Assembly (NCBI GenBank): GCA_041659765.1
Contig: JBAZXR010000001.1
Coordinates: 531,338 to 595,337, forward strand
DNA length: 64,000 nucleotides
Direction: 5' to 3'
DNA from: Patescibacteria group bacterium
Lineage (GTDB): Bacteria; Patescibacteriota; Patescibacteriia; UBA9934
A program made the translations under genes and the position numbers. Positions 6,020-36,989 of this stretch are shown in pieces (the first letter of the stretch is position 1; each line of letters begins with the position of its first letter). The notes under the pieces were generated by a model. That model made no database searches, had not been told where the DNA came from, and worked only from the letters and a program-made list of their open reading frames with translations.

Positions 6020-7990
6020 ATGTTTACCCGCTTTCTTCAAGCCATCATTTCCGCCGGTGCCGCCCTGGCTGTCTTTAGCATTCTAGCCACCGGAATGTAT
6101 TATGTCATGCCGGTAACAACCATCGGCCTGATTGTGTGTGCGGTGGCCGGCTCGGCGATCGTCGCCGTCATCCTGAGGAGCTCCGCGACGAAGGATCTGA
6201 TTGGCAGTGTCATCCCGATAACGGAGGGATCAGAACGGTTACCAATCAGATCCTTCGCTACGCTCAGGATGACTGCATTACTTTCAGTCTCCCTCCTCTC
6301 GCTCGGCCTCTGGTGGCACGCGGTGCTCACACATCCCATTCTCGAATCCGTACGGTCGCCGTGGCTGGTTATCAATTCGGCGAATTTGCTGTGGCTGTTT
6401 ATCCCGGCGGTTTGTGCGGCGGTTTTATTGATAGGAGGACGCGAGGACGGGGCGAGCCCCGTCCGTACAGCCGCGGGGTTCGGTGTAATCGTAATCACGT
6501 TATTTTCCGCGTTGTCATTTGCCGCTGCGGCATATCCCCTCGGTTTCGGTTTTGATCCGTTTCTGCATCGAGCGACCATCCAACATATCGCTGAGCATGG
6601 GACGATCACGCCGAAGCCGCTCTACTACATTGGCGAATATGTGATCGAATTGTTTGCGATGAAGGTGCTCCATTTGCCACTCATGTTGGTCGACGTATTC
6701 TTGGTGCCGCTCTTGGCGGCGACGTTGATTCCGGCGGCGGTGTTTTTGCGGGCGATACGCCAGGGCGGGGCAAGCCCCGCCCCTACCGCGGCGATTTTAT
6801 TATTTCTACCTATCGCCGCATTTGTCCAAACCACACCGCAGGCGTTGGCGTTCGTTTTTACAACGGTCGCGATATTGATCACGCAAAATACAAAAACCGA
6901 CAGCGGGGTTAAAAACCCCGCCTTCCCGATAATCCCATCGATCTTTGCCGTTGCGGCGCTGACCGCGCATCCGATTGCCGGACTCCTCGCCGTCTTCTTC
7001 GTCGTTTTGAATTTCTTGGCCGATAAGAAACGCGCGTGGTTCATCTGGACGTCCGTCTTGGCGACATTCGCCCTTCCCTTTGCATTTATTGCGCAGTCGT
7101 TCAAAGCACATCAGCCTTTTGGCATTCAAATCCCAGGGCTTCACGAAATTGCAGCCCTGCCCCTGTCCTCATTCTTTGGCACGCATTTCAACGCCTGGGG
7201 CGACACGGCGTATTTGGTGATCGGGAACATGTTCCTCGTCACGGTGACGATCGGGATTTTCGGTGCATGGCGAATGCACAAGGGGGCGCCGCAAGGGGCG
7301 TCCGTACGATGGATTCCCTTGATTTGCGCGGGGATTGCGTTTTCGAACTTCTTGATCTTGGGATTATTCTTTGAGTTCCCTTTCTTAATTTCGTACGAAC
7401 GGACGGATTTTGCGGCGCGGATGCTCACCCTGACGGTGTTGTTTTTGATGCCGTATATGCCGTACGCGATGACGCGTGCGAAGGGCGGGGCAAGCCCCGC
7501 CCTTACAGCGCGACGCGCGTTTGGTGTCGCCATTGTCGGCGTTGTATTTGTATCGTCGGTGTACGGCGCGTTCCCACGGTACGACGCATATGCATCTTCA
7601 GCGGGGTTCAATGTGACAAAGGCGGACTTTGACGCCGTTAAGGCCATCGAAGAATACGCCGCCGGACGGGATTACGTCGTTCTTGCGAACCAGGCCACAT
7701 CGTCCGCGGCCATCTCGACTCTCGGTTTCAAAAAATATTATCACGGCGACATCTACTTCTACCCTATCCCCACTGGCGGCCAGCTGTACCAACTCTATCT
7801 CGCCATGGCTGACAAACCGCGTGAAGCGATCATCGACAAAGCTCGTGCACTCACCGGCGCCCAACTGGTCTTCTTCGTCATGGACGATTATTGGTGGGAC
7901 TCCAAACGCGTCGTGGAACAAACAAAAACCATCACGGACATCACCTGGACCTTCGGCGACCACGAGGTGATGGTGATGGTGTTTGAGTAG
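6020..7990 (+). CDS. Large integral membrane protein of unknown function (about 14+ TM helices). Carries four in-frame palindromic micro-elements.
   Basis: 656-aa ORF, strongly hydrophobic, with a soluble C-terminal region. Function unknown; possibly envelope biogenesis or a GT-C-like protein. Confidence 0.7.
   Translation: MFTRFLQAIISAGAALAVFSILATGMYYVMPVTTIGLIVCAVAGSAIVAVILRSSATKDLIGSVIPITEGSERLPIRSFATLRMTALLSVSLLSLGLWWHAVLTHPILESVRSPWLVINSANLLWLFIPAVCAAVLLIGGREDGASPVRTAAGFGVIVITLFSALSFAAAAYPLGFGFDPFLHRATIQHIAEHGTITPKPLYYIGEYVIELFAMKVLHLPLMLVDVFLVPLLAATLIPAAVFLRAIRQGGASPAPTAAILLFLPIAAFVQTTPQALAFVFTTVAILITQNTKTDSGVKNPAFPIIPSIFAVAALTAHPIAGLLAVFFVVLNFLADKKRAWFIWTSVLATFALPFAFIAQSFKAHQPFGIQIPGLHEIAALPLSSFFGTHFNAWGDTAYLVIGNMFLVTVTIGIFGAWRMHKGAPQGASVRWIPLICAGIAFSNFLILGLFFEFPFLISYERTDFAARMLTLTVLFLMPYMPYAMTRAKGGASPALTARRAFGVAIVGVVFVSSVYGAFPRYDAYASSAGFNVTKADFDAVKAIEEYAAGRDYVVLANQATSSAAISTLGFKKYYHGDIYFYPIPTGGQLYQLYLAMADKPREAIIDKARALTGAQLVFFVMDDYWWDSKRVVEQTKTITDITWTFGDHEVMVMVFE
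6446..6470. repeat. Palindromic micro-element, family P1 (GGACGGGGCGAGCCCCGTCCGTACA), in-frame in the CDS at 6020..7990.
   Basis: Perfect palindrome GGACGGGGC-GAGCCCCGTCC. Same core plus the GTCCGTACA flank occurs at 23330..23354. Encodes DGASPVRT. Confidence 0.8.
6764..6783. repeat. Palindromic micro-element, family P1 (GGGCGGGGCAAGCCCCGCCC), in-frame in the CDS at 6020..7990.
   Basis: 20-bp perfect palindrome, identical to the copy at 7484..7503. Encodes GGASPAPT. Confidence 0.85.
6904..6922. repeat. Palindromic micro-element, P2 variant (GCGGGGTTAAAAACCCCGC), in-frame in the CDS at 6020..7990.
   Basis: Same stem as the P2 copies at 14921 and 36941 (GCGGGGTTAATAACCCCGC). Encodes SGVKNPA. 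Confidence 0.7.
7484..7503. repeat. Palindromic micro-element, family P1 (GGGCGGGGCAAGCCCCGCCC), in-frame in the CDS at 6020..7990.
   Basis: Identical to the copy at 6764..6783. Encodes GGASPALT. Confidence 0.85.
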
Positions 7991-8066
7991 GATGGATTGG
8001 TCCTGATCAGGATCCATCCTGAGCGCGAGCGAAGGATCAGACCCTCCCCTCCACCTCAGGAGAGCT
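7991..8066. repeat. Degenerate copy of an intergenic MITE/REP-like element (unit TCCATCCTGAGCGCGAGCGAAGGATC). Overlaps the 3' end of the GIY-YIG gene.
   Basis: Shares the unit with 8431..8455 and, in inverted orientation, with 57283..57311. Also contains the palindrome TCCTGATCAGGA. Confidence 0.7.
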
Positions 8067-8358
8067 CGACGAGCTTCTCAAACAGGTCTTCCCACTTCGG
8101 ATTCTTCGAGGTAACGAGCTCAGCCTTCCTCGCTCGGTTCCATCCCTTCAATTGTTTCTCTCGAAATAATGCCGTGTCTCGATCTGGAGTAGTTTCAAAA
8201 TAGACGAGCTTCACACAGTTATTCTTACTTGCAAATCCAGGCACGAGTTTATCTTTATGTTGCTGAATCCGTTCCGGCAATTGCGTGCTCATCCCAATAT
8301 ACAAAACATTGTTCGTTGGGCTCGCCATGATGTAGACGCCACATGAATCGTCATTCAT
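8056..8358 (-). CDS. Small GIY-YIG nuclease domain protein (URI/YhbQ-like).
   Basis: N-terminal GVYIMASPTNNVLYIGMS (GIY...YIG) and a conserved Glu region in a 100-aa ORF. Flanked on both sides by copies of the palindromic element. Confidence 0.8.
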   Translation of the reverse strand: MNDDSCGVYIMASPTNNVLYIGMSTQLPERIQQHKDKLVPGFASKNNCVKLVYFETTPDRDTALFREKQLKGWNRARKAELVTSKNPKWEDLFEKLVELS

Positions 8359-8377
8359 ACAATGCTTGGAGGTGAAA

Positions 8378-8533
8378 GTCTGACTCTTCGCTCTCGCTCA
8401 GAGTGGGGACCATGATAAATTCTCAAGCATTCCATCCTGAGCCATGCGAAGGATCAAACTTTCACCGGTGAGGGTCGGACTCTTCGCGCTCGCTCAGAGT
8501 GGAGACCGGAATAATTCGCAAGCGATCCATCCT
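8378..8533. repeat. Composite MITE/REP-like palindromic element. Contains a half arm (8382..8406), a full ~73-bp hairpin unit (8431..8503) and a truncated arm (8524..8533).
   Basis: Arms TCCATCCTGAGCCATGCGAAGGATC and GGACTCTTCGCGCTCGCTCAGAGTGGA are mutual inverted repeats. Homologous to 57239..57311 and 7991..8066. Confidence 0.8.
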
Positions 8534-10834: not shown

Positions 10835-10841
10835 AGATGCC

Positions 10842-11856: not shown

Positions 11857-11868
11857 AGATGGGGTTAT

Positions 11869-12888: not shown

Positions 12889-12897
12889 ATTATTTAT

Positions 12898-14979
12898 TTA
12901 CCAAGCTCCAAGTGAAGTGCCCAAAGAGCCGATAAGTTTAGAGCCAAGTGTGCCCATTATATTCCCATGCGAAGTAAAAACCTGTACTTCACCGGCGCCA
13001 TGTTCTGGGGCCACCACAATATCCTCTTTACCGTCTACATCTATGTCTGAAACGGCTACCACCGCGCCGGTTTTAGAAGATTGATCACCCACCCAGAACT
13101 GTCCCCATACCGCACCAATCTTGTTAAAGATGCGGATATTGGAGGCCCCTGGCGCACGCGGGGCGGTCACAATCTCGTCTCGATCGTCGCCGTCAAAGTC
13201 GCCGGACGACAGTGAGATGCCATAAGTCATGGTTGGCGCATATGCCAAGAAATCCACCAAAGCTTTTCCATCATTATCATACACGGCTACACGGGGGATT
13301 CCAGACAAGGCGCCAAACACCATTTCTTGATCATAGTCCTCATCAATGTCAGCCACCGTGGCGGTGAGCGGAGTGTCGGCGGCGAACCCGACCACCGGAA
13401 ACCGGAATTTCTCTACACCATCTTGGCCGAACACCACAGCATCAGTGCTGACTCCGGCCCCAACCACGGCTACAATGTCATCCGAAAAATCCCCGTCCAC
13501 ATCACCCAGGGCCACAGAGACTCCTTGTCTTGTTTTCTCATCAAAAGCAAAGAACGAACGAATGAGTGCGCCAGTAGCGGTGAAAATTCGTATCTGTGGA
13601 CCGCCGCCTTTTCCAGCCGAAGCAATAACCTCAGGAACACCATCGCCCGTCAGATCAGCCAGGCCCACCCGAACACCGCCCAGAAAAGTTGGCGCAAAAA
13701 CATAGAACTCTGCATATGGCGTACCGTCAGCCTTATATACTCTGACGTTCGGCGGCTCGCCAGGCGCTGCGCCGAGGGCAATAAACGAATATGCCGAATC
13801 TCCAGTCAAACCGCCACTACTCGCCGCTGGCGGCTTAGTGGTTGAAGGAATTGGCGCAACTGGGAGTGGTCCGGCCGGGGCGGTGCCCGCCAATGATTGA
13901 GCCACGGATAGCGCGCGAGCGATATTCAATCGGCCGACGCCTAGCGAACCCGGACCAGATAAGGTCACTTTCACCGGGTCAACCGACAGCTTGATGGCAG
14001 TCCTGACTTGATCAACCGTCAGCGTTGGGAAAGCTGAAAGCATCAAGGCGGCGGCTCCGGCCACCATTGGGCTAGCGGCGGACGTGCCATCCCAAGAAAG
14101 CTGGGTACCAAATAATCCAGTGTCTCCGTCACTCAAAGTTAAACCCTGAATATTCGTGCCGGGCGCGCTTAAATCCGCACAGGCGTTTCCAAAATTAGTG
14201 AATTCAGTTTCAGAATCACTCTCGTCAGTAGCGGCCACGCCGATCACCCAATCCTCCGTTTCTGATCTGAAACAGGCCGGGTAGACCGGCGAGCTGTTCA
14301 CATCCCTTCCATCATTCCCGAGCGCGGCCGTAATGGTCACCCCGGCATGATAAGCATCAATCACCGCCTGCCGCAAAGCCGAACCAGACACGTCCCCCAC
14401 AAAACTGAGATTAATTACTTTCGCCCCATTTTTCACCGCGTAACGAATAGCGCTGGTCGCCTCCTCTTCTCCCCCGCCGCCTTGTTCATCTAAAATTCTG
14501 AGCGGCATGATACGAACGTGCCAATTAATTCCCGCGTAACCAATACTATTATTCGTGGCTGCTCCAATAATGCCGGAGATCAGAGTTCCGTGCGATGTAG
14601 CAAGCGCTGAAGAATTCGCGTCCGGAATAGTCCCCTTGGGAACCGGAGAATTGTCATGATCCACAAAATCCCAACCTTCGACATCATCAACATATCCGTT
14701 CCGATCATCATCCAGGCCATTGCCCGGAATCTCATTAGTGTTCTTCCAAAGATTGTGGACTAAATCTGGATGATCAAGATCCACCCCAGTATCAAGAACG
14801 GCCACGATCACCGAGCCATCACCGACCGACGTATCCCAAGCGGCCTCAACATTAATCAGGCGCAAGTACCACTGCTCAGCAAGATATGGATCGTTCGGGG
14901 TTTTTGCCAAGACGCACAAAGGCGGGGTTAATAACCCCGCCATCACAAAACAGATCGCGACGTTCCCAAGAAAGCGCAT
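12898..14979 (-). CDS. Secreted subtilisin-like (S8) serine protease with C-terminal FG-GAP/VCBS-like repeats.
   Basis: Catalytic triad blocks DTGVDLDHPDL, HGTLISGIIGA and GTSAASPMVAGAAAL. C-terminal repeats of the DxDGDGxxD type (LADLTGDGVPEVI etc.). Signal peptide present. Confidence 0.85.
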   Translation of the reverse strand: MRFLGNVAICFVMAGLLTPPLCVLAKTPNDPYLAEQWYLRLINVEAAWDTSVGDGSVIVAVLDTGVDLDHPDLVHNLWKNTNEIPGNGLDDDRNGYVDDVEGWDFVDHDNSPVPKGTIPDANSSALATSHGTLISGIIGAATNNSIGYAGINWHVRIMPLRILDEQGGGGEEEATSAIRYAVKNGAKVINLSFVGDVSGSALRQAVIDAYHAGVTITAALGNDGRDVNSSPVYPACFRSETEDWVIGVAATDESDSETEFTNFGNACADLSAPGTNIQGLTLSDGDTGLFGTQLSWDGTSAASPMVAGAAALMLSAFPTLTVDQVRTAIKLSVDPVKVTLSGPGSLGVGRLNIARALSVAQSLAGTAPAGPLPVAPIPSTTKPPAASSGGLTGDSAYSFIALGAAPGEPPNVRVYKADGTPYAEFYVFAPTFLGGVRVGLADLTGDGVPEVIASAGKGGGPQIRIFTATGALIRSFFAFDEKTRQGVSVALGDVDGDFSDDIVAVVGAGVSTDAVVFGQDGVEKFRFPVVGFAADTPLTATVADIDEDYDQEMVFGALSGIPRVAVYDNDGKALVDFLAYAPTMTYGISLSSGDFDGDDRDEIVTAPRAPGASNIRIFNKIGAVWGQFWVGDQSSKTGAVVAVSDIDVDGKEDIVVAPEHGAGEVQVFTSHGNIMGTLGSKLIGSLGTSLGAW
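14921..14946. repeat. Palindromic micro-element, family P2 (GGCGGGGTTAATAACCCCGCCATCAC), lying in-frame within the signal peptide of the S8 protease.
   Basis: Identical core plus ATCAC flank at 36941..36965. Encodes MAGLLTPP. Confidence 0.85.
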
Positions 14980-23154: not shown

Positions 23155-23330
23155 AAAGTTACAGAAACCATTTTCCCCTTTTAAGGGGTAAAGAGATAGA
23201 GGTTTGCACGGGCCTGCGGCCCCGACCTTTGAAGCGTGCTTACCCGGGATGCGTTGAACGCAGTCCCTTTCGGGAGGGCATCGTGCGATGCCCTGCCTGA
23301 AGGAAATGCCTTGCTCTATTCTGAGACGGG
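23155..23330 (-). other. Structured leader / intergenic region containing five consecutive GC-rich stem-loops.
   Basis: Palindromes CCCCTTTTAAGGGG (23177..23190), GGGCCTGCGGCCC, GCGTTCAACGC, GGGCATCGTGCGATGCCC (23276..23293) and the P1 element (23330..23349). Confidence 0.5.
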
Positions 23331-24476
23331 GACGGGGCAAGCCCCGTCCGTACAACTCGCTTCGCTCGTTGCCGCTTCGGCTTTGGCGGCTTCTTCCGCG
23401 GCCTTAGCGTCGGCTTCGGCCTTAGCTTCGGCGTCAGCCCTGGTCTGCATAATGAGGATTTCTGTTTCCGCAATGTTCGCCTCAAGTTTGAGCAGTTCTG
23501 CGTCTATCCCCTGGAGCGTAGCGAAGGCGCTTCTGTAACCACCGGCGGCGAAACCGTTCATAGCCTCCGGAATCTGTAGCTTGGTTTGCTTAATCACGTA
23601 GCTCAGTCTCTTTAGGTCATCGCCGGAAGGAATCCCCTTCACTCCGTCAAACATCTTCACTCCGAGCACCGTCTTGCTAATAGTGTCTAACCGATGCTCA
23701 TCGAAGGTTTGTCTGGCCTCTATAGATCCGAGCTCCTTAGTGAACATGGCCTTCAGTTCAACGGTTGATTTCTCTGTAGCTCCTTGCTCATGGACATCTA
23801 CCGCAACGGTAGTTGCGACAGTCTGCGCCTCCTTCACGGCCTGCTTTGCGTCAACGGTTTCCGTGCCGGCTGCTGAAGTTGAGTTGGTCGATGCCGTTTC
23901 TTCGATCACTGCCTTCATCGAGTCGATCTTATTCTGCACGTCAGTCACGACGGCGAGTGCCGTGGACGAACCAACACTGTCTTTCAAGTTTTTCAAATCG
24001 GCTGAGGCCTGAGAAAGTTCCGAGGCGTATTCCACCATGGCTGTCTTAGCGAGTGCCTGATGGCCCTCGTCCGTAGATCCTGATGAGCGAAGTTCTGCCG
24101 CTTCTCGCAATCTGCGCTCGGCGAACTCGGTATGGAGCACAGCGCGACGATCGAGCGACGCCAACCGAAGCTGAGCCTGTTCCGTAATACGTTTTACTGA
24201 GTAGAGGGTTTCGCCCGGCAAGCTCGACGAAGCCGCGCTCACCGTAGAAAGACTACCGGCAAAAAGAGTAACTGAAGCCACACCGATAGTTACCGGCTTA
24301 GAAATAAAAGAACTGACATACCAAGAGACGTAAGACTTGGAAGTCTGGCGAACTGGCAAGTCAGCGCTCACACGTGAAAGGAGGCGGGACTTAGCCGCGC
24401 CGTGCTCAGAAAGAGAAAGGGCCCCTGCTCGGGGATTATTTTTCAAACTCTTAAGTTGTGATAGAAGGTTCGACAC
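23316..24476 (-). CDS. DUF5667-like membrane protein, a candidate anti-sigma factor. It has a cytoplasmic N-terminus, one TM helix and a long helical extracytoplasmic domain.
   Basis: Motif PGETLYSVKRITEQAQLRL follows the TM helix. 26-nt overlap with the upstream ECF sigma gene. Confidence 0.6.
   Translation of the reverse strand: MSNLLSQLKSLKNNPRAGALSLSEHGAAKSRLLSRVSADLPVRQTSKSYVSWYVSSFISKPVTIGVASVTLFAGSLSTVSAASSSLPGETLYSVKRITEQAQLRLASLDRRAVLHTEFAERRLREAAELRSSGSTDEGHQALAKTAMVEYASELSQASADLKNLKDSVGSSTALAVVTDVQNKIDSMKAVIEETASTNSTSAAGTETVDAKQAVKEAQTVATTVAVDVHEQGATEKSTVELKAMFTKELGSIEARQTFDEHRLDTISKTVLGVKMFDGVKGIPSGDDLKRLSYVIKQTKLQIPEAMNGFAAGGYRSAFATLQGIDAELLKLEANIAETEILIMQTRADAEAKAEADAKAAEEAAKAEAATSEASCTDGACPVPVSE
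23330..23354. repeat. Palindromic micro-element, family P1 (GGACGGGGCAAGCCCCGTCCGTACA), forming the last codons (TDGACPV) of the anti-sigma-like gene.
   Basis: Same core and GTCCGTACA flank as 6446..6470. Confidence 0.8.
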
Positions 24477-25537: not shown

Positions 25538-28500
25538 ATGAGAAAGCTGCTTCGTTCGGGATTCATAGCAACACTCTGTGTGCTCGCAACTACCCTGCCG
25601 GTGCGTGCGATAGAACAAGACAGTTCGCCGTTTATCGCATCCACACCAGTTCGTGTTGCTCCAGAAGACTCTTCGGGGTCTTTTTCATATTCCTATCCCA
25701 TCTCCGTTCCACCCGGACGCAATGCCATGCAGCCAAACATTTCGCTATCTTATAACAGCGGCGTCGCGGATGACGCTAGTATTACGGGCTACGGCTGGAG
25801 CCCCTCAATCCCAAAGATTGAGCGGGTCAACAAACGCGGGGTCGACAAGCTTTACAACAGACACGACTTCACTTCTTCGCTTGGCGGAGAGCTGGTCGAC
25901 GTATTGTTGTCCGATGGTTCGCACGGAACCTATGCGGTCAAAGTCGAAAATGGAAATTTCCTTACCTACGTTTACAACACGAACGAAACCTGGACGGTGA
26001 CGGACATGCTTGGCACGCAATACACCTTCGGCGGGAGCAGCAACTCGCGGGTCATTGACCCTGCCAACAGTTCTCACGTCTTCTCTTGGTACCTCACAGA
26101 AACTCGTGACACGAATGACAACGTCGTCACCTACTCATATTCCAGTACCAATAACCAGGTTTATCCGAGCAACATTAACTATACTGGACACGCCAACACT
26201 GCCGGTATTTTTGACATCGCCTTTACTCTGGAAGCAAGCTCGACCACAAACGAATCATTCGCCACGGGATTCTCTGTAAAAACCGGCCAGCGAATTTCCG
26301 CGATTACCGTAAAAGTGAATAATACAAATGTTCGTATCTACGACATTAACTATACGGTCGGAGACAACACCACCCGACCGCTTCTTTCAAGTATCACAGA
26401 GACCGGGATAGACGAGGCTAGCAACAGCATCACTAAACCCGCTACCACGTTTACATATTCCGCAAGCCACCGGACCTGGACGGAAGATACGACTGCCTCT
26501 ATTCCTATTGCCATAGCGGCAGGAGGCGCGTCTAGCATCGGCACGTTTGTCTTTGATGTAAATGGAGATTCGCTGCCAGACATCGTAAAATCATTAATAA
26601 TTGACAACGGCGGCACGCCCATCATTGAACGTGGAGTATATCTGAACGATGGAAATAACAACTGGGTAGAAGATGCAGGCTACACCATTCCAGTCTATTT
26701 CGCTGGTAATGGCTATGACCAAGGCGTGCGCATCGCCGATTTTAACGGTGACGGCTATCAGGACATTTTGAAAGCGCGGAGAGATCAGAACACCGGTGTT
26801 TTATACAGCGAAGTCTATATCAACGATGGCGATGGAACTGGGTGGACCCAAGATACTACAGTTGTCATTCCTACAGCCTTTGATAACTCAACAAGGATTT
26901 TTGATGTGAACGGAGATGGTCTTCCTGATATTGTCTATGGACGAATGAATCAATGGACAGCTGCGATCGAGAGCGAGTTCTACATCAACAATGGCGACGG
27001 AACTGGCTGGACCCTGGATGGAAATTATGTACTGCCGATAAACATTTCCACTGAAAAGGGAAAAGATGCGGCGTTCCGAACGGCCGACGTCAACGGCGAT
27101 GGGTTAACAGACCTCCTGCAAGCCGTATCAACAACCAACGAGGTCTATATCAATAAGGGGAACGGAACTGGGTGGATCAAAAACACCAGCTACGTCATTC
27201 CCGCAACCTTCCTCGCGACAGGAAAAGATACCGGCACGCGGCTTCTTGATATTAACGGAGATGGTCTCACGGACGTCTTCCACTCTCGTCTTGACTCAAC
27301 AGGAAACCCTGAAAGCAACCTCTACATCAACCGGGGAGGAGAGGAGGGATGGGTTGAAGATACAAACTTTCAAGGAGCGCCGGTCGCCATGACTACCAGC
27401 GCTGGCGCTGACCGTGGCGTCCGAGAAGATAATTTCTCTGGATCGATGTTGACGGACTTCATGCACTCCGTTAGAACCGGAACGCCCGAGGTTCTCTATA
27501 CCTACCTGTTCGTCCAAGACGGAGGCAGGGGCGATCTTCTAACTAGCGTCTCATCAACAAGCGGAGCGACGACAGATGTAGCCTACACCTCTTCCACCGT
27601 TCCCAACCCCTCACTTCCTTTCTCTCTTCAAGTTGTCGATACCATCACGACGGATGACGGATTCGGGAATGTTTCAACGCAATCTTATACATACGAAAAT
27701 GGTTCATTTTACTACAACAATGAATACGACAGAAAGTTCGCTGGGTTCGGAAAAGTAACGACAACGGACGGGCTTGGAAATGTGACGATTAGCTATTACC
27801 ATCAGGGAAATACTTCGGACTCCGCTCATGGCGAAGCAACGGATGACGTCAGCAAGCTCCTACATCGCTATCGCGAAGAACAATACGACAGTAATGGAAA
27901 CCTCTATCGCACGACAATTGACACGTGGGTTAATACTGACATCGGAAATGGCAGAGACTTTGTCTACAAAACGCAGACACTGGTCATGGACTACGATGGT
28001 GATGCCGATCACCGGGATACTGCCGTTCGGTATACATACAATACGAACAACGGAAACCTCGTTGAGAAAATCGAGTATGGTCTTGGCACTGGAAACGATA
28101 ACGGATCCTTTACGGATTCTGGCACGGATGATCGGACGACTGCCTACGCCTACGCGCAGTGGACGAGCGGTGAATCCGGCTACCTGGCCTCCGAAACGCT
28201 CACGGATCATGTCATTGACACCATTCGCCGAACTACCAGGTTCTATGACGGGAACACGACTAACGCCGTAAGCATTGGCAACGTTACGCGAGAGGTGAAA
28301 AAGATTTCGGCTACTGAAAATGCGGAAACAAACTTCGCCTATGACGCGTATGGTTTCCGTACGGCAGTGATTGATGCAAATGGCAATACTACAACCATTA
28401 CTCCCGACGCAGTGGAACTCTATCCGGCGAGCGTCACAAACGATCTCAGTCAAGTCACTGAGTACGTCTATGATTACTCGTCAGGCAAGGTTATAGAGAC

Positions 28501-31210
28501 CACGGATGCGAACGGCTTCATCAGCCAGACGGTGCTGGACGGATTCGATCGTCCTATCACAGAAAAGAAACCAAATCCGTCATCGCCGGCGTCACTCTTG
28601 AACGTTCGCACGTTCTCATATGACGACGTAAGTTTCCCTTCTTCGATCCATGAATCAGACCTGTTCGACGGTTTAATACAGAAAGAAACCTACACGTATT
28701 TTGACGGTTTCAGCCGGCCAGTGCAGACCCGCGAAGAAGCGGCCAGCAGCTACAGCGTGATCGACACCGCGTATGACGAACGTGGAGATGTGAAGAAGGC
28801 CTCCCTTCCCTATTCTTCTGCCGGCTCAGGCCACACGAGCCCAACCACTACCGTCGCGCTCTACGAGACTTACGCCCGTGACGCACTACATCGTCTCACC
28901 AGCAAAACAAATGCTGCAGGAAGCACCGTCACGAGTTACGACGAAGGTATTTCAACAGAAACAGACGCGGAAAATAACACCAAGAAATATCACTGGGATG
29001 GTTTCGGTCGGCTCGAGAGTGTCATTGAAGTCATCGATGCGACCGAGCTCGAAACGTCTTACGAGTACGATGCTGCCGGAAATCTTACCGGACTAACAGA
29101 CGCGGAAAATAACATTCGCACGTTTGCATACAACGGCCTTGGCAACCGGACTGCGATGACTGATCTCCACGCAAGCGGCGATATTTATTTTGGCGAATGG
29201 AGCTACGGTTTCGATCCCCTGGGCAACATGATTCAAGCCGTGAGCCCGAACGGTGTCACCACTACCTACGCGTACGACGAGCTCAATCGCCTTAAAACAG
29301 AAAACGCCTCCGGCACTAGCGGCACAGACCTCACGTACACCTATGATTCCTGCACGAACGGTGTTGGCAAGCGTTGCTCCGCTGCGGTTCTGGGAGGCGC
29401 AACCACCGCCTACACGTATGACGCGTTGGGACGCACGGCGACTGAAGTAAAAACCATCAGCGGCATTGGCTACACCACCGCCTACGCGTACGATCGCCAG
29501 AACAACGTGTCGACCGTCACCTACCCAGACACCAGCACGGCAACCTACGCGCTCAATAGCGCCGGGCAGATTACTTCTGCAGCGTTCGATGACGTTCACG
29601 GAGCTCCCGTCACCGAAGTCAGCAGCATTACCTACGGTCCGCACGGCAAAGTGACGGCAGCTACTTACGGCAACGGAGTTACTTCCACCTGGAGCTATGA
29701 TGCAGCAGAGCTCTATCGCCTCCAGAACAAGACCACCACGTCAGGCACGAATGGCATCGAAAACTTCATCTACGGTTATGATAACGTAGGCAATCTTGCA
29801 ACACTCGCAGACGCTTCATCGCTCTACGGCAGCCTGGCCATCACCTACGGCTACGATGACCTCTACCGCCTCACGGGTGCCGACTCCGTCAGCGCAGACA
29901 GTGCGCTCGACTACACAAAAACCTGGTCCTACACGGACATTGGCAACATTGTCTCTTCCTCAGACAAGGGTTCTTATACGTACGGCGGCACAGCCTCCGG
30001 CAACTACGCCAACCCTCACGCCCCTACTCACATTGGCAGCAGCACCACGCTGACGTACGACTACAATGGCAACATGACCGGTGACGGGACGTGGACAAAT
30101 ACTTGGGATCATCGGAATCAGCTTCTCACTTCAGTAGACGGAACAACGACGGTCACTTATCAGTACGACGACGCTGGTAACCGTGTGGTCCAGGATGGCT
30201 CGGGTGCGACCAGAATCTATCCGAATTCGTATTACTCCGTAGACGGATCCAACGTCGATCGCAACATTCTCGTCGGCGCCCTCGGCTCCGTAGCCACCTC
30301 AAACTGGAATGGTACAGTCGACAGCATCACCTACCATCACACTGACCACCTCGGTGGAACCCATATTGAAACCAACGAAAACGGGGCTACGGTTGAGTAC
30401 ATCATCTATTCTCCATTCGGTGGAACGCTCGTTGACGTAAAAACCGGAGCGTATGAGAACAAAAACAAATACACAGGAAAAGAAAAGGATATAGATACAG
30501 GTTGGTATTATTACGGTGCACGTTATTACAATGCGGAGAATGGAGTATTCTTGAGTGAGGACCCGGTGTTCTTGAACATGGGAACTTCGAATCATGAGTC
30601 CGAACAGAAACGTGTACTTACAGATCCTCAGCTTGGCAACAGTTACGCATACGCACGTGAGAATCCAATCACATATGTGGACCCCAACGGAGAGTTCATC
30701 CCTGTACTGGTGGCCGGACTTCTAGCAATGGCTCCTGAGATCGCTACAACGAGTGCGATCATAGCGAGTGGCGTTGGAGTTGCGGTCTTGGGCAACGCCC
30801 TAGACGTCGCCAGAAATCCGAATTCAAGCATGGTCGAGAGGCTGATGGCTGGAGCAGACGTAGCGGGCATAATTACCCCGTTTGGTGCGACCGAAAGACT
30901 CGGCACCCAAGGCTTCAGATCATTCACCGCATTCAAACGATTTGCCGGAGCGGCGGGCGAAGGACGGCAATGGCACCATATCGTCGAACAAAGTGCATCT
31001 AATATTGAACGATTTGGAGGGCAGGCAATCCACAGTACAGACAACCTCATCAGTCTTCCAAAAGAAATCCATCAACAAGTCAGTGGATATTATTCTTCAA
31101 AAATTCCTGAACTAACCGGAAATCAAACGGTTCGAGAGTGGCTCAGGCCACAATCCTTCGAAAAACAGGTAGAATTCGGCAAACGGATGCTCGATAAATT
31201 CACCAAGTAA
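25538..31210 (+). CDS. RHS/YD-repeat polymorphic toxin, 1890 aa. Architecture: signal peptide, SpvB-like N-domain, FG-GAP/integrin-like repeats, YD repeats, an RHS core ending YAYARENPITYVDPNGE, then a C-terminal WHH-type HNH nuclease toxin tip.
   Basis: SFSYSYPISVPPGRNAMQPNISLSYNS...GYGWS (SpvB); repeated FDVNGDGLPDIV; many YDxxGN YD repeats; tip contains GRQWHHIVEQ...N...H. Confidence 0.85.
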   Translation: MRKLLRSGFIATLCVLATTLPVRAIEQDSSPFIASTPVRVAPEDSSGSFSYSYPISVPPGRNAMQPNISLSYNSGVADDASITGYGWSPSIPKIERVNKRGVDKLYNRHDFTSSLGGELVDVLLSDGSHGTYAVKVENGNFLTYVYNTNETWTVTDMLGTQYTFGGSSNSRVIDPANSSHVFSWYLTETRDTNDNVVTYSYSSTNNQVYPSNINYTGHANTAGIFDIAFTLEASSTTNESFATGFSVKTGQRISAITVKVNNTNVRIYDINYTVGDNTTRPLLSSITETGIDEASNSITKPATTFTYSASHRTWTEDTTASIPIAIAAGGASSIGTFVFDVNGDSLPDIVKSLIIDNGGTPIIERGVYLNDGNNNWVEDAGYTIPVYFAGNGYDQGVRIADFNGDGYQDILKARRDQNTGVLYSEVYINDGDGTGWTQDTTVVIPTAFDNSTRIFDVNGDGLPDIVYGRMNQWTAAIESEFYINNGDGTGWTLDGNYVLPINISTEKGKDAAFRTADVNGDGLTDLLQAVSTTNEVYINKGNGTGWIKNTSYVIPATFLATGKDTGTRLLDINGDGLTDVFHSRLDSTGNPESNLYINRGGEEGWVEDTNFQGAPVAMTTSAGADRGVREDNFSGSMLTDFMHSVRTGTPEVLYTYLFVQDGGRGDLLTSVSSTSGATTDVAYTSSTVPNPSLPFSLQVVDTITTDDGFGNVSTQSYTYENGSFYYNNEYDRKFAGFGKVTTTDGLGNVTISYYHQGNTSDSAHGEATDDVSKLLHRYREEQYDSNGNLYRTTIDTWVNTDIGNGRDFVYKTQTLVMDYDGDADHRDTAVRYTYNTNNGNLVEKIEYGLGTGNDNGSFTDSGTDDRTTAYAYAQWTSGESGYLASETLTDHVIDTIRRTTRFYDGNTTNAVSIGNVTREVKKISATENAETNFAYDAYGFRTAVIDANGNTTTITPDAVELYPASVTNDLSQVTEYVYDYSSGKVIETTDANGFISQTVLDGFDRPITEKKPNPSSPASLLNVRTFSYDDVSFPSSIHESDLFDGLIQKETYTYFDGFSRPVQTREEAASSYSVIDTAYDERGDVKKASLPYSSAGSGHTSPTTTVALYETYARDALHRLTSKTNAAGSTVTSYDEGISTETDAENNTKKYHWDGFGRLESVIEVIDATELETSYEYDAAGNLTGLTDAENNIRTFAYNGLGNRTAMTDLHASGDIYFGEWSYGFDPLGNMIQAVSPNGVTTTYAYDELNRLKTENASGTSGTDLTYTYDSCTNGVGKRCSAAVLGGATTAYTYDALGRTATEVKTISGIGYTTAYAYDRQNNVSTVTYPDTSTATYALNSAGQITSAAFDDVHGAPVTEVSSITYGPHGKVTAATYGNGVTSTWSYDAAELYRLQNKTTTSGTNGIENFIYGYDNVGNLATLADASSLYGSLAITYGYDDLYRLTGADSVSADSALDYTKTWSYTDIGNIVSSSDKGSYTYGGTASGNYANPHAPTHIGSSTTLTYDYNGNMTGDGTWTNTWDHRNQLLTSVDGTTTVTYQYDDAGNRVVQDGSGATRIYPNSYYSVDGSNVDRNILVGALGSVATSNWNGTVDSITYHHTDHLGGTHIETNENGATVEYIIYSPFGGTLVDVKTGAYENKNKYTGKEKDIDTGWYYYGARYYNAENGVFLSEDPVFLNMGTSNHESEQKRVLTDPQLGNSYAYARENPITYVDPNGEFIPVLVAGLLAMAPEIATTSAIIASGVGVAVLGNALDVARNPNSSMVERLMAGADVAGIITPFGATERLGTQGFRSFTAFKRFAGAAGEGRQWHHIVEQSASNIERFGGQAIHSTDNLISLPKEIHQQVSGYYSSKIPELTGNQTVREWLRPQSFEKQVEFGKRMLDKFTK

Positions 31211-31213
31211 TAC

Positions 31214-31609: not shown

Positions 31610-31639
31610 TCCACCAAACACAAAACCACCCTCATGATC

Positions 31640-32220: not shown

Positions 32221-32221
32221 A
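32185..32221 (+). repeat. Right copy of the 37-bp perfect direct repeat.
   Basis: Identical to 25388..25424. Confidence 0.9.
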
Positions 32222-32224
32222 CAG

Positions 32225-32256
32225 AAAACCGTCGAGCTGAGCTCGACGGTTTTCGT
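32225..32256. terminator. Bidirectional hairpin terminator between the orphan fragment and the convergent GT4 gene.
   Basis: AAAACCGTCGAGCTGAGCTCGACGGTTTTCG. Confidence 0.6.
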
Positions 32257-33425: not shown

Positions 33426-33507
33426 TCTTAGCAGAAAAATGGCTTTCTGTCAACCCAAAACTCGCCTTTTTTCGCTAGGTTCAGCGGTAAGTATAGCCTA
33501 CTTTTGG

Positions 33508-33536
33508 TTGACTTTTCGCTCAAAAAATGGTACTGT
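33508..33536 (+). promoter_or_regulatory. Sigma70-like promoter: TTGACT, 17-nt spacer, TACTGT.
   Basis: GGTTGACTTTTCGCTCAAAAAATGGTACTGT upstream of 33580. The -35 context GTTGACTTTT is shared with the promoter at 39420. Confidence 0.5.
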
Positions 33537-33579
33537 GTGTAGTCGACCTCGCGTTGAGGTTGCACATTAAGGAGACGTC

Positions 33580-34026: not shown

Positions 34027-34049
34027 CGCTCAAGCATACGACAACAAAA

Positions 34050-34108
34050 CACCCCACCCTCTCACCGGCACGAGCCGGAACGTTGAGAGAACGGGGTGTT
34101 GTTTTTTT
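34050..34108. terminator. Nested-hairpin rho-independent terminator, family T copy 1. Bidirectional; overlaps the C39 gene stop.
   Basis: ACACCCCaccCTCTCAccggcacgagccggAAcgtTGAGAGaacGGGGTGTtgttttttt. Confidence 0.7.
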
Positions 34109-34931
34109 ATTTTGGCTCAATGACGACTACTCGAGTAGCACCGTTGGCTGGGTCGCCGTTGTTCCAGTCACCGATGGCGGACATGAAGATGCCTTCGTTA
34201 TAGGAGTAGTTTTCGCCGTGGCGGGTGCCGGGATCGTTCGTGATAAATTTTCCGTCTTTGGTGTAGCCGCGGATAACTAGCATGTGATAGAGCGGGCCCT
34301 CGCCTGTAAAGAACGGATTGCCGAGCTCTCGACCGGCGGCGGGAACAATGATGGGATAGCCTTTGCGCAAAAGTTCCTTGAGTTCTTCCGCGGTCGGATC
34401 CTCAACTACACGCGCCGAAAAATCAGAATATTTTTGAATAGTGTCGACCGTCTGTTCGGCCGTCATACTTAGACCGTAACTCAAAGATTCTTCGAGCGTG
34501 GTCATCTTCAAATATTGGTCATCAGCAAATTGTGGGTCAACTGTTTTGGCTCCGCGGTAAAACTCGAGTGTCATCAAGATTGAAGCCTCCTCACAGGTTT
34601 CTTCATGATACGGATCCCAAATCATAAAGGGCGCCTGGGAGGCGAACGGGACCGCGAGATTGAATTCGATGGGAGACGCGGGAACATCGGCAGGCGGGGT
34701 TTCTAACCCCGCATCTGGTGTTCCCGTCGGGAGCGGCGCCGAAGGTGCGACAGGCTCCACAACTGGCGTCTCAACAATTTGGTCATGCGCCACGGAAGGA
34801 ACGGTGGCCGTGGGGACATCGGGCTGAGATAGATAGGATTTTACTTTTAATCCTCCAGCGATCACGACGATGATCAAAATCGGCCAAAAAGATTTCCACG
34901 TCAGTGATCGCTTTGCTTTGTATGGTTGCAT
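34107..34931 (-). CDS. Membrane-anchored C39-like (papain-fold) peptidase domain protein.
   Basis: IEFNLAVPFASQAPF...WDPYHEETCEEASILM (catalytic Cys context), an N-terminal TM helix and a proline-rich linker. Contains an in-frame P2-variant palindrome. Confidence 0.6.
   Translation of the reverse strand: MQPYKAKRSLTWKSFWPILIIVVIAGGLKVKSYLSQPDVPTATVPSVAHDQIVETPVVEPVAPSAPLPTGTPDAGLETPPADVPASPIEFNLAVPFASQAPFMIWDPYHEETCEEASILMTLEFYRGAKTVDPQFADDQYLKMTTLEESLSYGLSMTAEQTVDTIQKYSDFSARVVEDPTAEELKELLRKGYPIIVPAAGRELGNPFFTGEGPLYHMLVIRGYTKDGKFITNDPGTRHGENYSYNEGIFMSAIGDWNNGDPANGATRVVVIEPK
34694..34712. repeat. Palindromic micro-element, P2 variant (GCGGGGTTTCTAACCCCGC), in-frame within the C39-like gene linker.
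   Basis: Same stem as the other P2 copies. Encodes AGLETPPA. Confidence 0.7.
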
Positions 34932-34932
34932 A

Positions 34933-36321
34933 CTATTTCAAGTTCTTCTCGGCCCATTCTTTCAAGAGGAGCGTAGCACGAACGTCATCTTCGTTGTACT
35001 CGATGATATCTTTAAGCGCAGCTTCATCACCCTTGGTCAGCCATTCGTTAAACCAGAGCACCGAGTTCAAGCCGGACGCGTCCTGGTGCCGCCACTTAAA
35101 GCCGAGGAACTGTGCAATGTCTTTTAGCGAATAGAACGAGAGCGGAAAGACGACCGCTTCGCGCAAACGAATCAGAAGATCAACGCCCTGTTCTTCGAGC
35201 ATCTGCAGCGTGTCGATGGGTGTTCCGTATTTCTCGCCGAGATCCTTGAATGTTGCCTGCTCGCTCCAACCGTAATGATAAATCGGCACGCCAGGATAAT
35301 TTTTCATGAACGCCACAAAATCTTCCCACGCCCTGCGCTCGTCCTTTGGATCTTTGGCTAGGAACGAATGGTACACGTCGATGCCATCGCCCTTCTCAAG
35401 CACGCCGAAGAGATAATGCACGTCGCGGAGTGGATCAGACTCGACGTCAACAATCAACGCGAGATCGCTCTTGGGAAGATCCACGGAACCGACCTTGAGA
35501 AATCTATTTTCGAGCAGTGCCCGAGCCTGCAGATGCAAAAAAGTTAGACGTTCGCGCGTGATGCCTGTCACCCTTCCCGCAATGAGATCCAGATGAAGAC
35601 GTGCGAAGTCTGTAACGGTCTTAAATCCCGCAGCTTCCAGCTCTTTCACCTCGCTCCGCCAGATTCTATTCAGACGCGACAAGGAATCACACTCGATAGC
35701 TTCTACTTTGCACGCGGAAAACCACGGCGACTGTTTGCAGTCGCTCGTCAAAAAATGCGGCTCCTCCTCCCCGTCCATAATTCTCTCAATCGAGTCGAGC
35801 GTCAGACGGTATTTCACCGCGGTCTCTTCGAGCAAGTAGCTCTCGACCTCTTTGTTGGGATGCATGATGTAACCCTGTAGTGGCCGAGTGCTCTGAATTA
35901 GGTTCAATAACTCTGCGTAGAAACACCCTTGAAGTCTATATTCATCTTTTAGTCGGCTAGACCGTTTAATGTCACAGGCTACGTAGTAATAGTCGCCAAG
36001 TTTTGACCGTCCCTCAACTCGCTCGAGAAGATCTGGTTCGGCAACAAATCGACCATGAACCAAGACTCCTCCGTAAATAGTCGGCGTGCCCTTCCTCATC
36101 TCTTCGAGAGTTTTTTCGAAGGCCTCCCCAACCTCCCCAACCCTCTCGACCTCCACCACCTTCTTCCCTTTTAGCATCTCCTTTTCATGCGATGGCAAAA
36201 GACCGTCCTGTTGGAGGCGGTCTTTTAGCTGATTCTCTGCCCTCGCCTCTTTAGCGTCATGAGAAATCCACGAGGGGCATTTGAGATACTGATAGAAATG
36301 TTTTTGAGTTATTCGTTTCAT
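34933..36321 (-). CDS. TM0106-family putative RecB-like nuclease with a C-terminal RNase H-like (YprB-type) 3'-5' exonuclease domain.
   Basis: 462 aa. N-terminal Cys cluster and a PD-(D/E)xK-like segment (YYYVACDIKRS); C-terminal VDVESDP...YHYGWSEQ...EYNEDDV. Confidence 0.5.
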   Translation of the reverse strand: MKRITQKHFYQYLKCPSWISHDAKEARAENQLKDRLQQDGLLPSHEKEMLKGKKVVEVERVGEVGEAFEKTLEEMRKGTPTIYGGVLVHGRFVAEPDLLERVEGRSKLGDYYYVACDIKRSSRLKDEYRLQGCFYAELLNLIQSTRPLQGYIMHPNKEVESYLLEETAVKYRLTLDSIERIMDGEEEPHFLTSDCKQSPWFSACKVEAIECDSLSRLNRIWRSEVKELEAAGFKTVTDFARLHLDLIAGRVTGITRERLTFLHLQARALLENRFLKVGSVDLPKSDLALIVDVESDPLRDVHYLFGVLEKGDGIDVYHSFLAKDPKDERRAWEDFVAFMKNYPGVPIYHYGWSEQATFKDLGEKYGTPIDTLQMLEEQGVDLLIRLREAVVFPLSFYSLKDIAQFLGFKWRHQDASGLNSVLWFNEWLTKGDEAALKDIIEYNEDDVRATLLLKEWAEKNLK

Positions 36322-36989
36322 TTTACGTCTTCGACCGTCACTTTTACTATCTTCTGCTCAGCGAGCGGACGGTCGCCGCCATCAACCGTTGTTCCTGCAA
36401 TCGCATCAACGAACTCCAAGCCGGAAGTCACTTTGCCAAAAATGGAATAAAGATGAGGGAGCGGAACGTCCTGGTGCATGATAAAGAACTGGCTGCCGTT
36501 TGTATTCGGACCAGAGTTAGCCATGGCCACCGTGCCGCGCTCGTATGTATGGGTATCATTAAGTTCGTCTTCAAACTTATATCCCGGGCCGCCCATACCG
36601 GTACCGGTAGGATCTCCGCCCTGGATCATGAAGCCCTTAATAACACGGTGAAAAATTAGTCCGTCATAGTAACCCTTGCTCGCCAGCGAGACAAAGTTGG
36701 AAACTGTCAGCGGAGCAGTGTCTGGATAGAGCTGGATGACAATATCGCCCTTCGCAGTCGTTAAACGAATCTGCTTGTTTTCGATCTCGCTAGGGGTTAG
36801 TTTGCCTGGAAACGTGTTGGCCATAGGAGCAGTTGTTTTTGAAGATGAAAAATCCGACGATGGTTTTACCACAGCGTCGGAAGATTCGGAAGGGGTCGGT
36901 AACGTAACCGAACCCTGCACACAACCCGCGCCGAGAAAAAGCGGGGTTAATAACCCCGCCATCACGAAAGCAACAGGAGCAATGCGCAT
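36318..36989 (-). CDS. Cyclophilin-type peptidyl-prolyl cis-trans isomerase, exported (lipoprotein-like).
   Basis: GYYDGLIFHRVIKGFMIQGGDPTGTGMGGPGYKFEDE...GTVAMANSGPNTNGSQFFI. Signal peptide with Cys; in-frame P2 element. Confidence 0.9.
   Translation of the reverse strand: MRIAPVAFVMAGLLTPLFLGAGCVQGSVTLPTPSESSDAVVKPSSDFSSSKTTAPMANTFPGKLTPSEIENKQIRLTTAKGDIVIQLYPDTAPLTVSNFVSLASKGYYDGLIFHRVIKGFMIQGGDPTGTGMGGPGYKFEDELNDTHTYERGTVAMANSGPNTNGSQFFIMHQDVPLPHLYSIFGKVTSGLEFVDAIAGTTVDGGDRPLAEQKIVKVTVEDVK
36941..36965. repeat. Palindromic micro-element, family P2 (GCGGGGTTAATAACCCCGCCATCAC), in-frame in the signal peptide of the cyclophilin.
   Basis: Identical to 14921..14946. Encodes VMAGLLTPL. Confidence 0.85.

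Follow-up and report, generated by a model that had tools for sequence, protein, structure and literature searches.

Analysis of a 64,000-nucleotide stretch of a Patescibacteria group genome (assembly GCA_041659765.1, contig JBAZXR010000001.1; the whole stretch is called the window below) shows that one short GC-rich DNA hairpin, here named P2, recurs inside four unrelated genes for cell-envelope proteins. P2 has the form GCGGGGTT-NNN-AACCCCGC, with a perfect stem of 8-9 bp and a loop of 3 nt (19-21 nt in total). We lean, with restrained confidence, towards the view that P2 is a dispersed palindromic repeat of the repetitive extragenic palindrome (REP) kind, which passes from site to site by copying or conversion and is tolerated only where the protein is unconstrained. 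It would then be a miniature family within a wider population of hairpin repeats (P1, P3 and P4) of this Patescibacteria lineage.

The pattern GCGGGGTTNNNAACCCCGC has four exact matches in the window, against 0.00-0.04 in dinucleotide-preserving shuffles. All four sites had been described, in four unrelated secreted or membrane proteins, by an earlier sequence-only reading of the window, and they are confirmed; this includes the two variants that it had assigned to the gene at 6020..7990 (loop AAA) and to the linker of a C39-like protein (loop TCT). When up to two mismatches are allowed, 14 copies are found in 197 kb of Patescibacteria DNA, compared to 0-1 in shuffles. These 14 copies occupy at least eight non-orthologous sites, and about 0.1 independent sites would be expected to carry the 16-nt stem where at least eight do so. 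The usual 3' flank of the 14 copies is CTT[C/T], such that the hairpin is mostly followed by C/T-T-T. In the window the copies are singletons, kilobases apart, and no inverted dimers were seen, be they bacterial interspersed mosaic elements (BIMEs) or REP doublets forming hairpins (REPINs).

The palindromes are not imposed by the proteins. Six hairpin-bearing genes together contain nine perfect hairpins whose stems reach 8 bp or more; when the synonymous codons within each gene were shuffled, the mean fell to 0.51 (maximum three in 300 trials). Because synonymous shuffling removes the hairpins, the palindromy is a product of codon choice and not a by-product of the protein sequence. Furthermore, P2 is read in two frames that are used about equally: frame A yields AGLLTP, AGLETP, AGFVTP and AGLVTP, frame B yields GVKNPA, GVNNPA and GVSNPA, and the third frame would hold a stop codon (TNN-NAA). 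Since both frames are used, it is the DNA that defines the repeat, with translation as no more than a filter. As RNA, the hairpins have predicted folding energies of -15 to -28 kcal/mol.

Coordinates of the copies, their host genes and the sister families are provided in Table 1. The copies in the S8 peptidase and cyclophilin genes share 25 identical nucleotides, GCGGGGTTAATAACCCCGCCATCAC (14922-14946 and 36941-36965). The sequence-only reading had put this block at 26 bp: the identity is real, but the base before it differs (G at 14921, A at 36940). It extends beyond the palindrome through the common flank CATCAC (GTGATG on the sense strand). Both copies encode MAGLLTP within a signal peptide, as had been read from the two minus-strand genes. 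In the S8 peptidase the peptide is FVMAGLLTP at codons 12-20 (VMAGLLTP being residues 13-20), in the hydrophobic core of the N-terminal signal peptide MRFLGNVAICFVMAGLLTPPLCVLA, which is followed by KTPNDP; the RNA hairpin has a centroid fold of -17.4 kcal/mol. In the lipoprotein signal peptide of the cyclophilin (MRIAPVAFVMAGLLTPLFLGAGC), VMAGLLTP covers residues 10-17 (the hairpin spans codons 9-17), upstream of the conserved LGAGC lipobox. The copy in the C39-like protein lies inside a longer imperfect palindrome (48 bp with outer arms; outer 7-bp stem GGGAACA/TGTTCCC) with a fold of -27.6 kcal/mol (z = -5.4), and encodes DAGLETPP in the Pro-rich stretch that links the membrane anchor to the Peptidase_C39_2 domain.

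The copy at 6903 is read in another frame than the remaining three (SGVKNPA) and falls in a loop between helices 274-287 and 304-316 of a 656-aa membrane protein. The gene for this protein is a hairpin hotspot with three P1 copies and one P2 copy; it belongs to a glycan-synthesis gene cluster and is conserved across Patescibacteria. The protein has no Pfam match. Its AlphaFold model (mean predicted local distance difference test, pLDDT, of 89.7; predicted template modelling score, pTM, of 0.93) is closest in the PDB to the GT-C glycosyltransferases AftA and PglB, at modest TM-scores of 0.44 and 0.40. All four hairpin-coded segments of the model are inter-helix coils with dips in pLDDT, the P2 loop being the lowest (62). 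Every P2 copy thus far located sits in a signal peptide, linker, loop or tail, in agreement with the earlier claim that the element is tolerated where the encoded peptide is unconstrained. A preference for coding sequence is not indicated: four of four copies in coding sequence is the chance expectation in a window that is about 93% coding.

Table 1. Hairpin copies of families P1 to P4 and host genes of P2 in the window (positions are those of the window).
Feature	Position	Strand	Sequence, loop or flank	Context
P2 copy 1, GT-C-like membrane protein	6902..6922 (exact pattern match 6903-6921)	+	Loop AAA (plus strand)	Inter-helix loop
P2 copy 2, S8 signal peptide	14921..14946 (exact pattern match 14922-14940)	-	GGCGGGGTTAATAACCCCGCC, 9-bp stem, 3-nt loop, plus CATCAC flank; plus-strand loop AAT	Signal peptide
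P2 copy 3, C39 linker palindrome	34679..34726 (exact pattern match nested at 34694-34712)	-	Sense-strand loop AGA; plus-strand loop TCT	Linker
P2 copy 4, cyclophilin	36940..36965 (exact pattern match 36941-36959)	-	25 nt identical to S8 copy; plus-strand loop AAT	Lipoprotein signal peptide
Host gene of copy 1	6020..7990	+		656-aa polytopic membrane protein, GT-C glycosyltransferase-like fold
Host gene of copy 2	12898..14979	-		Secreted S8 peptidase with FG-GAP repeats
Host gene of copy 3	34107..34931	-		Membrane-anchored Peptidase_C39_2-like protein
Host gene of copy 4	36318..36989	-		Cyclophilin-type peptidyl-prolyl isomerase with lipoprotein signal peptide
P1	6445..6464	+	GGACGGGGCGAGCCCCGTCC then GTAC	Encodes DGASPV; clean 8-9-codon gap in L125 and L123
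P1	6763..6782	+	GGGCGGGGCAAGCCCCGCCC then CTAC	Encodes GGASPA
P1	7481..7504	+	10-bp stem then TTAC	Encodes GGASPA
P1	23330..23349	not assigned	Then GTAC	C-terminal tail of DUF5667 gene
P3	4557..4578	-	GGGTCGAC-N6-GTCGACCC, sense-strand CTAC	Encodes GSTQGSTP in 562-aa membrane protein
P3	62210..62231	+	Then CTAC	Non-coding, 12 nt upstream of gyrB ATG at 62244
P4	10321..10341	-	CCCCCTCTTTGAAAGAGGGGG, CTAC on sense strand	Inside GT4 glycosyltransferase gene

Copies can be grouped by their loops. Identical sequences of one subfamily are found at sites that are not orthologous, in unrelated genes and in different genomes. The ATT/AAT loop occurs in the S8 and cyclophilin genes of the window and in loop 2 of the GT-C-like protein of relative L152, where it is read GVNNPA. 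The AAA loop is found in loop 3 of that protein in the window and in its loop 5 in L146, over 28 nt with two mismatches (GCGGGGTTAAAAACCCC[G/T]CCTTC[C/G]CG). The AGA loop connects the C39 linker of the window to the C-terminal tail of the DUF5667 protein in L148 (21 identical nt, GCGGGGTTAGAAACCCCGCCT). The flip between AAT and ATT, as well as the covarying stems described below, can be explained by template switching on inverted repeats, because this yields both: it homogenises the arms and inverts spacers in coding DNA (PMC8604942).

Syntenic loci from at least eight related genomes were compared with the window, whose proteins have relatives labelled Patescibacteria or Uhrbacteria. The cyclophilin genes of the window and L145 are 78% identical over the gene, yet contain an identical 30-nt block at the hairpin (GTGATGGCGGGGTTATTAACCCCGCTTTTT), with no synonymous change against six in the 17 flanking codons with identical residues. 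At the same place L147 has a 19-nt hairpin, GCGGCATTAACGTTGCCGC, in which two pairs covary (GCGGGG/CCCCGC in the window, GCGGCA/TGCCGC in L147). No hairpin is present in L148 or in six or more further cyclophilin orthologues (P0124 and P0126-P0129 among them), and the hairpin-free signal peptides are three residues shorter (MRLAPVALAALLLTTIGAGC). For the S8 peptidase, five orthologues are hairpin-free (L122, L123, L157, P0242 and P0243; L157 is from the same sample as the closest relative) and have an unrelated ...AAMGAVF... signal peptide of similar length, that of the window being two codons shorter. L150 carries P2 with loop TGT (MAGFVTP) at the same position and its sister L123 has none. 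The sequence-only reading had named sister orthologues as the telling comparison. Here the outcome is divided: against that reading, by a condition of its own, the S8 gene of L149 yields MAGLLMP through the non-palindromic codons ATG GCT GGA TTA CTA ATG CCG, which can be read as a decayed copy or a precursor; in its favour, most S8 and cyclophilin orthologues lack the motif. In the C39-like protein, L147 lacks six codons exactly at the hairpin and the linker of L148 carries different palindromes.

Patterns in the GT-C-like protein are of another kind: its variable loops carry a hairpin in nearly every relative, and the family at a given loop differs. Loop 2 (the 6763 site) holds P1 in the window and L146, P2 in L152 and P3 in L122 and L123, and is empty in L125. 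Loop 3 (the 6903 site) holds P2 in the window and P3 in L146, L122 and L123, and is empty in L125 and L152. Loop 4 has P1 in the window and L146, P3 in L122, a 14-bp GTAG palindrome in L123, a P4-like hairpin in L152 and a composite hairpin in L125. Loop 5 has P2 in L146 and L123 and a hybrid resembling P2 and P3 in L122, and is empty in the window, L125 and L152. Similarly, the C-terminal tail of the DUF5667 protein contains P1 in the window and P2 in L148. Some copies are decaying, with stem-breaking changes at L122 site 1, L146 site 2 and L146 site 5. Throughout the close syntenic relatives P2 is in frame inside open reading frames (ORFs). Among distant Patescibacteria it is found in Pro/Thr-rich regions: L019 reads AGLVTPP in a 1857-nt ORF, L067 reads GGVSNPA twice, from two direct copies 84 bp apart, and in L058 the frame is uncertain. 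The linkers of other cyclophilins hold AGLQTP and GSTETSTP, and in the wider family most homologues are without any hairpin. P2 is lineage-specific among the orthologues and absent from most of those of the cyclophilin, S8 and C39 genes.

A scan of the window for perfect hairpins revealed that P2 is one of at least four families. P1 has the consensus GG[A/G]CGGGGC[A/G]AGCCCCG[T/C]CC, followed by GTAC, CTAC or TTAC, and a site-specific variant of it (GGAC...GTCC, then GTAC) is kept orthologously in the window and L146. The sequence [C/G]TAC directly adjoins 16 of the 21 P1 and P3 copies in the window and relatives (TTAC adjoins two more), and this tag of P1, P3 and P4 corresponds to GTAG/GTAC on the opposite strand, the signature of REP elements. 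Ten of the 11 copies of P1 to P4 in the window are intragenic; the P3 copy before gyrB is the only non-coding one seen. (As gyrB extends past the end of the window, the ORF listed at 62349..62834 on the minus strand is spurious.) The carrier genes nearly all code for exported or membrane proteins. The first 37 kb of the window are devoted to the cell envelope, with genes for glycosyltransferases, for large proteins of the membrane or secreted from the cell, and for an extracytoplasmic function (ECF) sigma factor with a DUF5667 protein, and positions 37-64 kb concern housekeeping (MetK, a DEAD helicase, LexA/DinB, glycolysis enzymes, ribosomal proteins, RF1, FtsW and gyrB); no P1, P2 or P3 copy was found inside the housekeeping genes at 37-62 kb.

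Two further observations concern the sister families. P4 (CCCCCTC...GAGGGGG) occurs in relatives as a two-hairpin composite (GCGCGGGnGTGCCCGCGC, a spacer of about 17 nt, CCCCCTCCTTCnnnAGGAGGGGG) in two different genes: the C39 linker of L148 (12278-12335) and the GT4 gene of L152 (6011-6068). The hybrid in GT-C loop 5 of L122 (about 5395-5425, GGGTTAATACATGGATCGACCCCTAC) apparently combines the left arm and loop of P2 with the right arm of P3 and CTAC, and could mark recombination between families at one site.

In the explanation that we favour, a dispersed REP-like repeat, new copies would come from copying in which a short patch is replaced, and not from the insertion of a fixed unit. One possible route is gene conversion over short tracts, or the repair of breaks, with another copy as template; palindromes are fragile sites. 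Another is a single-strand nuclease of the HUH or REP-associated tyrosine transposase (RAYT) type acting on the hairpins, which is plausible because the sister families carry the GTAG/CTAC guide tag of such enzymes. Template switching within the palindrome would keep the arms complementary, flip the loops and give rise to covarying stems. Since about 93% of the genome is coding, the repeats lie within genes, and the surviving copies would be those that keep the frame open and fall where the protein accepts almost any short peptide rich in G/A/L/T/P/S/V: in envelope proteins, the cores of signal peptides, Pro/Thr linkers, loops between helices and C-terminal tails. The encoded peptides would be by-products. 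The mobile or recombining element that the sequence-only reading proposed stands in its main lines but not in full: P2 is a DNA-level repeat, used in two frames, lineage-specific and recurrent at non-orthologous sites, while we infer its mobility and any enzyme behind it.

A number of results weigh against this explanation. Comparing filled to hairpin-free sites, the net length change is -2 codons for S8, +3 for the cyclophilin, +6 for C39 and +2 to about +14 for the membrane protein, so that the insert of eight residues envisaged earlier does not hold, and no target-site duplication or flanking direct repeat is evident at filled against empty orthologous sites. Because of this variable length and the missing duplication, a simple insertion of a fixed-length unit fails; what is seen rather resembles the replacement of a patch, gene conversion or the formation of a palindrome in place. 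Moreover, synonymous differences between the window and its closest relatives, counted only in codons with identical residues, affect three of 33 palindrome codons against 290 of 626 elsewhere in the same genes (Fisher p = 7.7e-6). Together with the conserved P1 variant this depletion points to purifying selection on the nucleotides or to continual re-copying, not to neutral junk. The same loop holds different families in different relatives, and swapping by random insertion would require that very few sites are permissive. None of the 14 P2 copies adjoins a GTAG or CGTC tag, and no transposase of the Y1/HUH type (RAYT, IS200/IS605) is found among the approximately 60 proteins of the window (about 7% of the genome), nor do the Pfam tables for related loci, which cover about 150 kb, list one of the Y1/HUH type. 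Finally, the peptide at the site is often much alike in orthologues that have no hairpin (e.g. AALLLTT against AGLLTP), which makes formation in place, or conversion of a quasi-palindrome, plausible for some copies.

The depletion of synonymous changes is what would be expected if the hairpins were functional cis-elements selected inside coding sequence, with a shared binding partner and incidental peptides. They might act as RNA structures in the mRNAs of envelope proteins (stability, a translation-coupled attenuator or terminator, processing), or as DNA structures or binding sites, e.g. for gyrase or a nucleoid protein as for REP/BIME. The invariant cyclophilin block, the covarying pairs of L147, the stable predicted folds, the T-rich and terminator-like sense-strand tail after most P2 copies, the predominance of exported or membrane proteins among the carriers and the presence of hairpins in the same loops across the relatives, even when the family differs, all fit this idea. 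Nonetheless we consider it rather unlikely. Copies are decaying or lost without effect on the gene (L122 site 1, L146 sites 2 and 5, L149), and this decay, together with the hairpin-free state of most wider-family homologues, would argue against strict function; at least four unrelated stem sequences would require four partners. Hairpins also occur in the gene of one cytoplasmic GT4 enzyme and in the gyrB leader, and there is no match to an Rfam family. A translational pause that aids secretion was rejected: a hairpin at codons 10-17 would come too early for a ribosome pause to assist the signal recognition particle or Sec, given the known length of the ribosome tunnel, as the signal peptide is still inside the ribosome. 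Family swapping could alternatively mean that the hairpins are exchangeable cassettes at fixed, tagged positions of envelope proteins (loops, linkers and signal peptides). Families would be swapped, with the synonymous sites kept conserved, by a single-strand nuclease or recombinase specific for hairpins (RAYT-like or novel) or by break repair that the hairpin sets off, and this might diversify surface-exposed peptides or provide in-gene RNA or DNA structural signals in an episymbiotic bacterium of the candidate phyla radiation (CPR). To this scenario we give little credence.

Equally doubtful, in our opinion, is that the palindromes arise in place at each site, by template switching on chance quasi-palindromes, and that their similarity is convergence. 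Here the neighbouring arm would be duplicated in inverted orientation in low-complexity sequence coding for G/A/L/T/P. Template switching is known in coding DNA (PMC8604942); similar peptides occur without a hairpin (AALLLTT against AGLLTP in the cyclophilin; AMGAVF or MAGLLMP against MAGLLTP in S8), and the net changes in length, from -2 to +6 codons, are slight and not uniform, amounting to roughly one arm. Convergence would, however, have to account for identity beyond the palindrome (GTGATG in S8 and cyclophilin; CCTTC(C/G)CG in loop 3 of the window and loop 5 of L146), which also covers the non-constrained loop, non-orthologous sites and two frames, as well as for the same 16-nt stem at so many independent sites. 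The conserved unpaired tag on P1 and P3 would not be a product of template switching, and discrete families with shared flanks, already seen on this small scale, are contrary to pure convergence. Lastly, P2 might be a motif at the protein level, for example a lineage-specific signal-peptide or sorting motif (V)MAGLLTP, with an incidental palindrome. FVMAGLLTP is indeed common to two exported proteins at the same place of the signal peptide, and L149 encodes MAGLLMP without a palindrome. This is nevertheless hardly credible: the remaining copies use a different frame (GVKNPA) or are located in linkers, loops and tails, the codon choice is specifically palindromic, and most orthologous signal peptides are without the motif yet keep their lipobox or cleavage region.

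Several other candidates were tried and set aside. Carriage by phages is not indicated: P2 with its CTT tail has no match in IMG/VR, and P3 with CTAC has four, on unrelated high-GC contigs. Searches for a known RNA or tRNA-derived element in the whole window gave no match with Rfam 15 (gathering score) or ARAGORN, and no tRNA or transfer-messenger RNA. A likeness of CGGGG-TTNNNAA-CCCCG to the T-arm of tRNA was dropped since the loop is without the conserved C56/A58. DNA uptake sequences, parS, CRISPR repeats and the cruciform of diversity-generating retroelements were considered and dropped as well; the spacing, sequence and context of the copies do not fit. A palindrome in queA (55381-55399, GCGACGTTAATAACGTCGC) looked like a covarying P2, having the P2 loop, the outer stem and two covarying inner pairs. 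It encodes GDVINV in an otherwise ordinary stretch of the enzyme and is probably due to chance, because 64 kb should contain approximately seven hairpins with 8-bp stems by chance alone.

Some features of the window stand apart from P1 to P4. Two long perfect palindromes with A/T-tract flanks, at 32224-32254 (14-bp stem) and 42098-42125 (12-bp stem), are intergenic and, unlike P1 to P4, look like the genuine bidirectional terminators of this genome. Between the GT-C and GT4 genes, a stand-alone gene for a 100-aa GIY-YIG nuclease (8056-8358, minus strand) is present in this genome only; at its position relatives have nothing (L122, L123) or else an ORF of about 302 aa that is unrelated to it (L146, L152). 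This small nuclease gene is possibly mobile or of the homing type. Beside the ECF sigma/DUF5667 pair are genes for three predicted envelope proteins of very large size (15804-18764, 18901-23355 and 25538-31210): one of 986 aa with 11 MopE metal-binding repeats, and two of 1484 and 1890 aa without a Pfam match. LexA and DinB (IMS family) form an SOS pair at 43738-46132, which is also found in L148 (1-2148), where the surrounding gene order differs.

REP-type palindromes are classically extragenic, their mode of spread is unresolved, and intragenic ones have been reported only as a curiosity in a few species. The ultra-compact Patescibacteria genome studied here appears to hold several hairpin families almost entirely inside coding sequence. 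If this is confirmed genome-wide, it offers a natural system for the movement or re-copying of REP-like elements, in which filled, empty and swapped sites can be aligned by codon. It would also call for caution when CPR surface proteins are annotated or their evolution is analysed, as short shared peptides such as MAGLLTP, GGASPA and GSTxxSTP would be products of a DNA repeat and not signs of homology or sorting, and it would indicate a possible source of rapid variation in exposed protein segments.

The P2-type hairpin sequence itself is generic. A search of a contig collection with GCGGGGTTNNNAACCCCGC yielded at least 120 matching loci across many phyla. Among the matches listed, most are REP-like repeats of Poribacteria (CTGCAG-hairpin-CTGCAG or hairpin-CTAC) and terminators in many phyla; three are Patescibacteria loci. 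REP-like repeats of this sequence, often with CTAC or CTGCAG flanks, are thus present in Poribacteria, Lentisphaerae and others, and a search of metagenome contigs with the AAT-loop P2 gave 19 unrelated matches. In unrelated bacteria (L037, L053, L095, L108) GCGGGGTTnnnAACCCCGC is an A-tract/T-tract terminator. The same sequence is a high-copy repeat in metagenome-assembled genomes of Poribacteria (among loci L003-L121, which come from Poribacteria and other phyla), sometimes as 57-bp tandem arrays (L055); it looks REP/BIME-like and may represent an undescribed family. P2 resembles Rho-independent terminators in its GC-rich stem followed by T-rich sequence, but is in frame at codons 10-20, 73-80 and 295-301, and its T tract is short or absent.

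Rickettsia palindromic elements of type RPE-1 are about 100-150 bp long and add 30-50 residues. Ogata and colleagues reportedly described them in 2000 as selfish palindromic DNA that resides in frame in unrelated genes and is tolerated since the added peptide falls at exposed positions without constraint. P2 shares the in-frame residence in unrelated genes at permissive positions, but measures 19-26 bp, contributes 6-8 residues, often replaces sequence, and comes from an unrelated organism without sequence similarity. Rickettsia palindromic elements are also mentioned in PMC3733652 and PMC1779305. A miniature inverted-repeat transposable element would differ from P2 by a fixed-length insertion and a flanking target-site duplication. 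Template-switch mutagenesis (PMC8604942; coding palindromes of Nematomorpha, PMC6649704) shares the perfect arms, covarying stems, loop inversion and small replacements in ORFs, but is a local process, which alone leaves identical sequences with shared flanks at different loci unexplained.

The closest comparison is with the GTAG- and CGTC-tagged REPs of Di Nocera, De Gregorio & Rocco 2013 (PMC3733652), which are 20-40 bp long with stems of 6-13 bp (mostly 6-9), loops of mostly 2-3 nt and covarying stem subfamilies. Intragenic members are documented in linkers, loops or N-termini, e.g. in Opitutus terrae and as RPE-4/RPE-6 of Rickettsia conorii, and different REPs can occupy about the same gene site in related species (PMC3733652). 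The families described here agree in being short GC-rich palindromes in several families, with covarying subfamilies and some copies in frame; P2 falls within the published ranges of size, stem and loop, and P1, P3 and P4 of the window carry the tag. P2 differs in having no tag, in that its four copies in the window are all in frame inside ORFs where published REPs are mostly extragenic and downstream of ORFs, and in that copies are single rather than dimers or BIMEs. REPs typically number tens to hundreds per genome; for P2, the 64 kb of the window yield four copies, and related DNA totalling 197 kb yields 14. No RAYT gene was seen in the window and related loci. Group 3 REPs of Stenotrophomonas maltophilia share the geometry of P2, with a perfect palindrome of 8 bp and a loop of 3 nt (Corneloup et al. 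2021, PMC8266576); their activity needs a perfect stem, and the stems found here are strikingly perfect. They also need an adjacent GTAG, the motif by which RAYT/TnpA_REP nucleases recognise their target or are guided (PMC8266576), as well as a CT cleavage site close by, and they are linked to a tnpA_REP gene. P2 is untagged. In the literature searched, no description of REP-like elements in CPR/Patescibacteria was found. Overall, precedents exist in intragenic REPs and the Rickettsia elements, and the feature falls in a known class. What is distinctive here is an untagged P2, an almost wholly intragenic location, a CPR host, family swapping at fixed sites and the conservation of synonymous sites.

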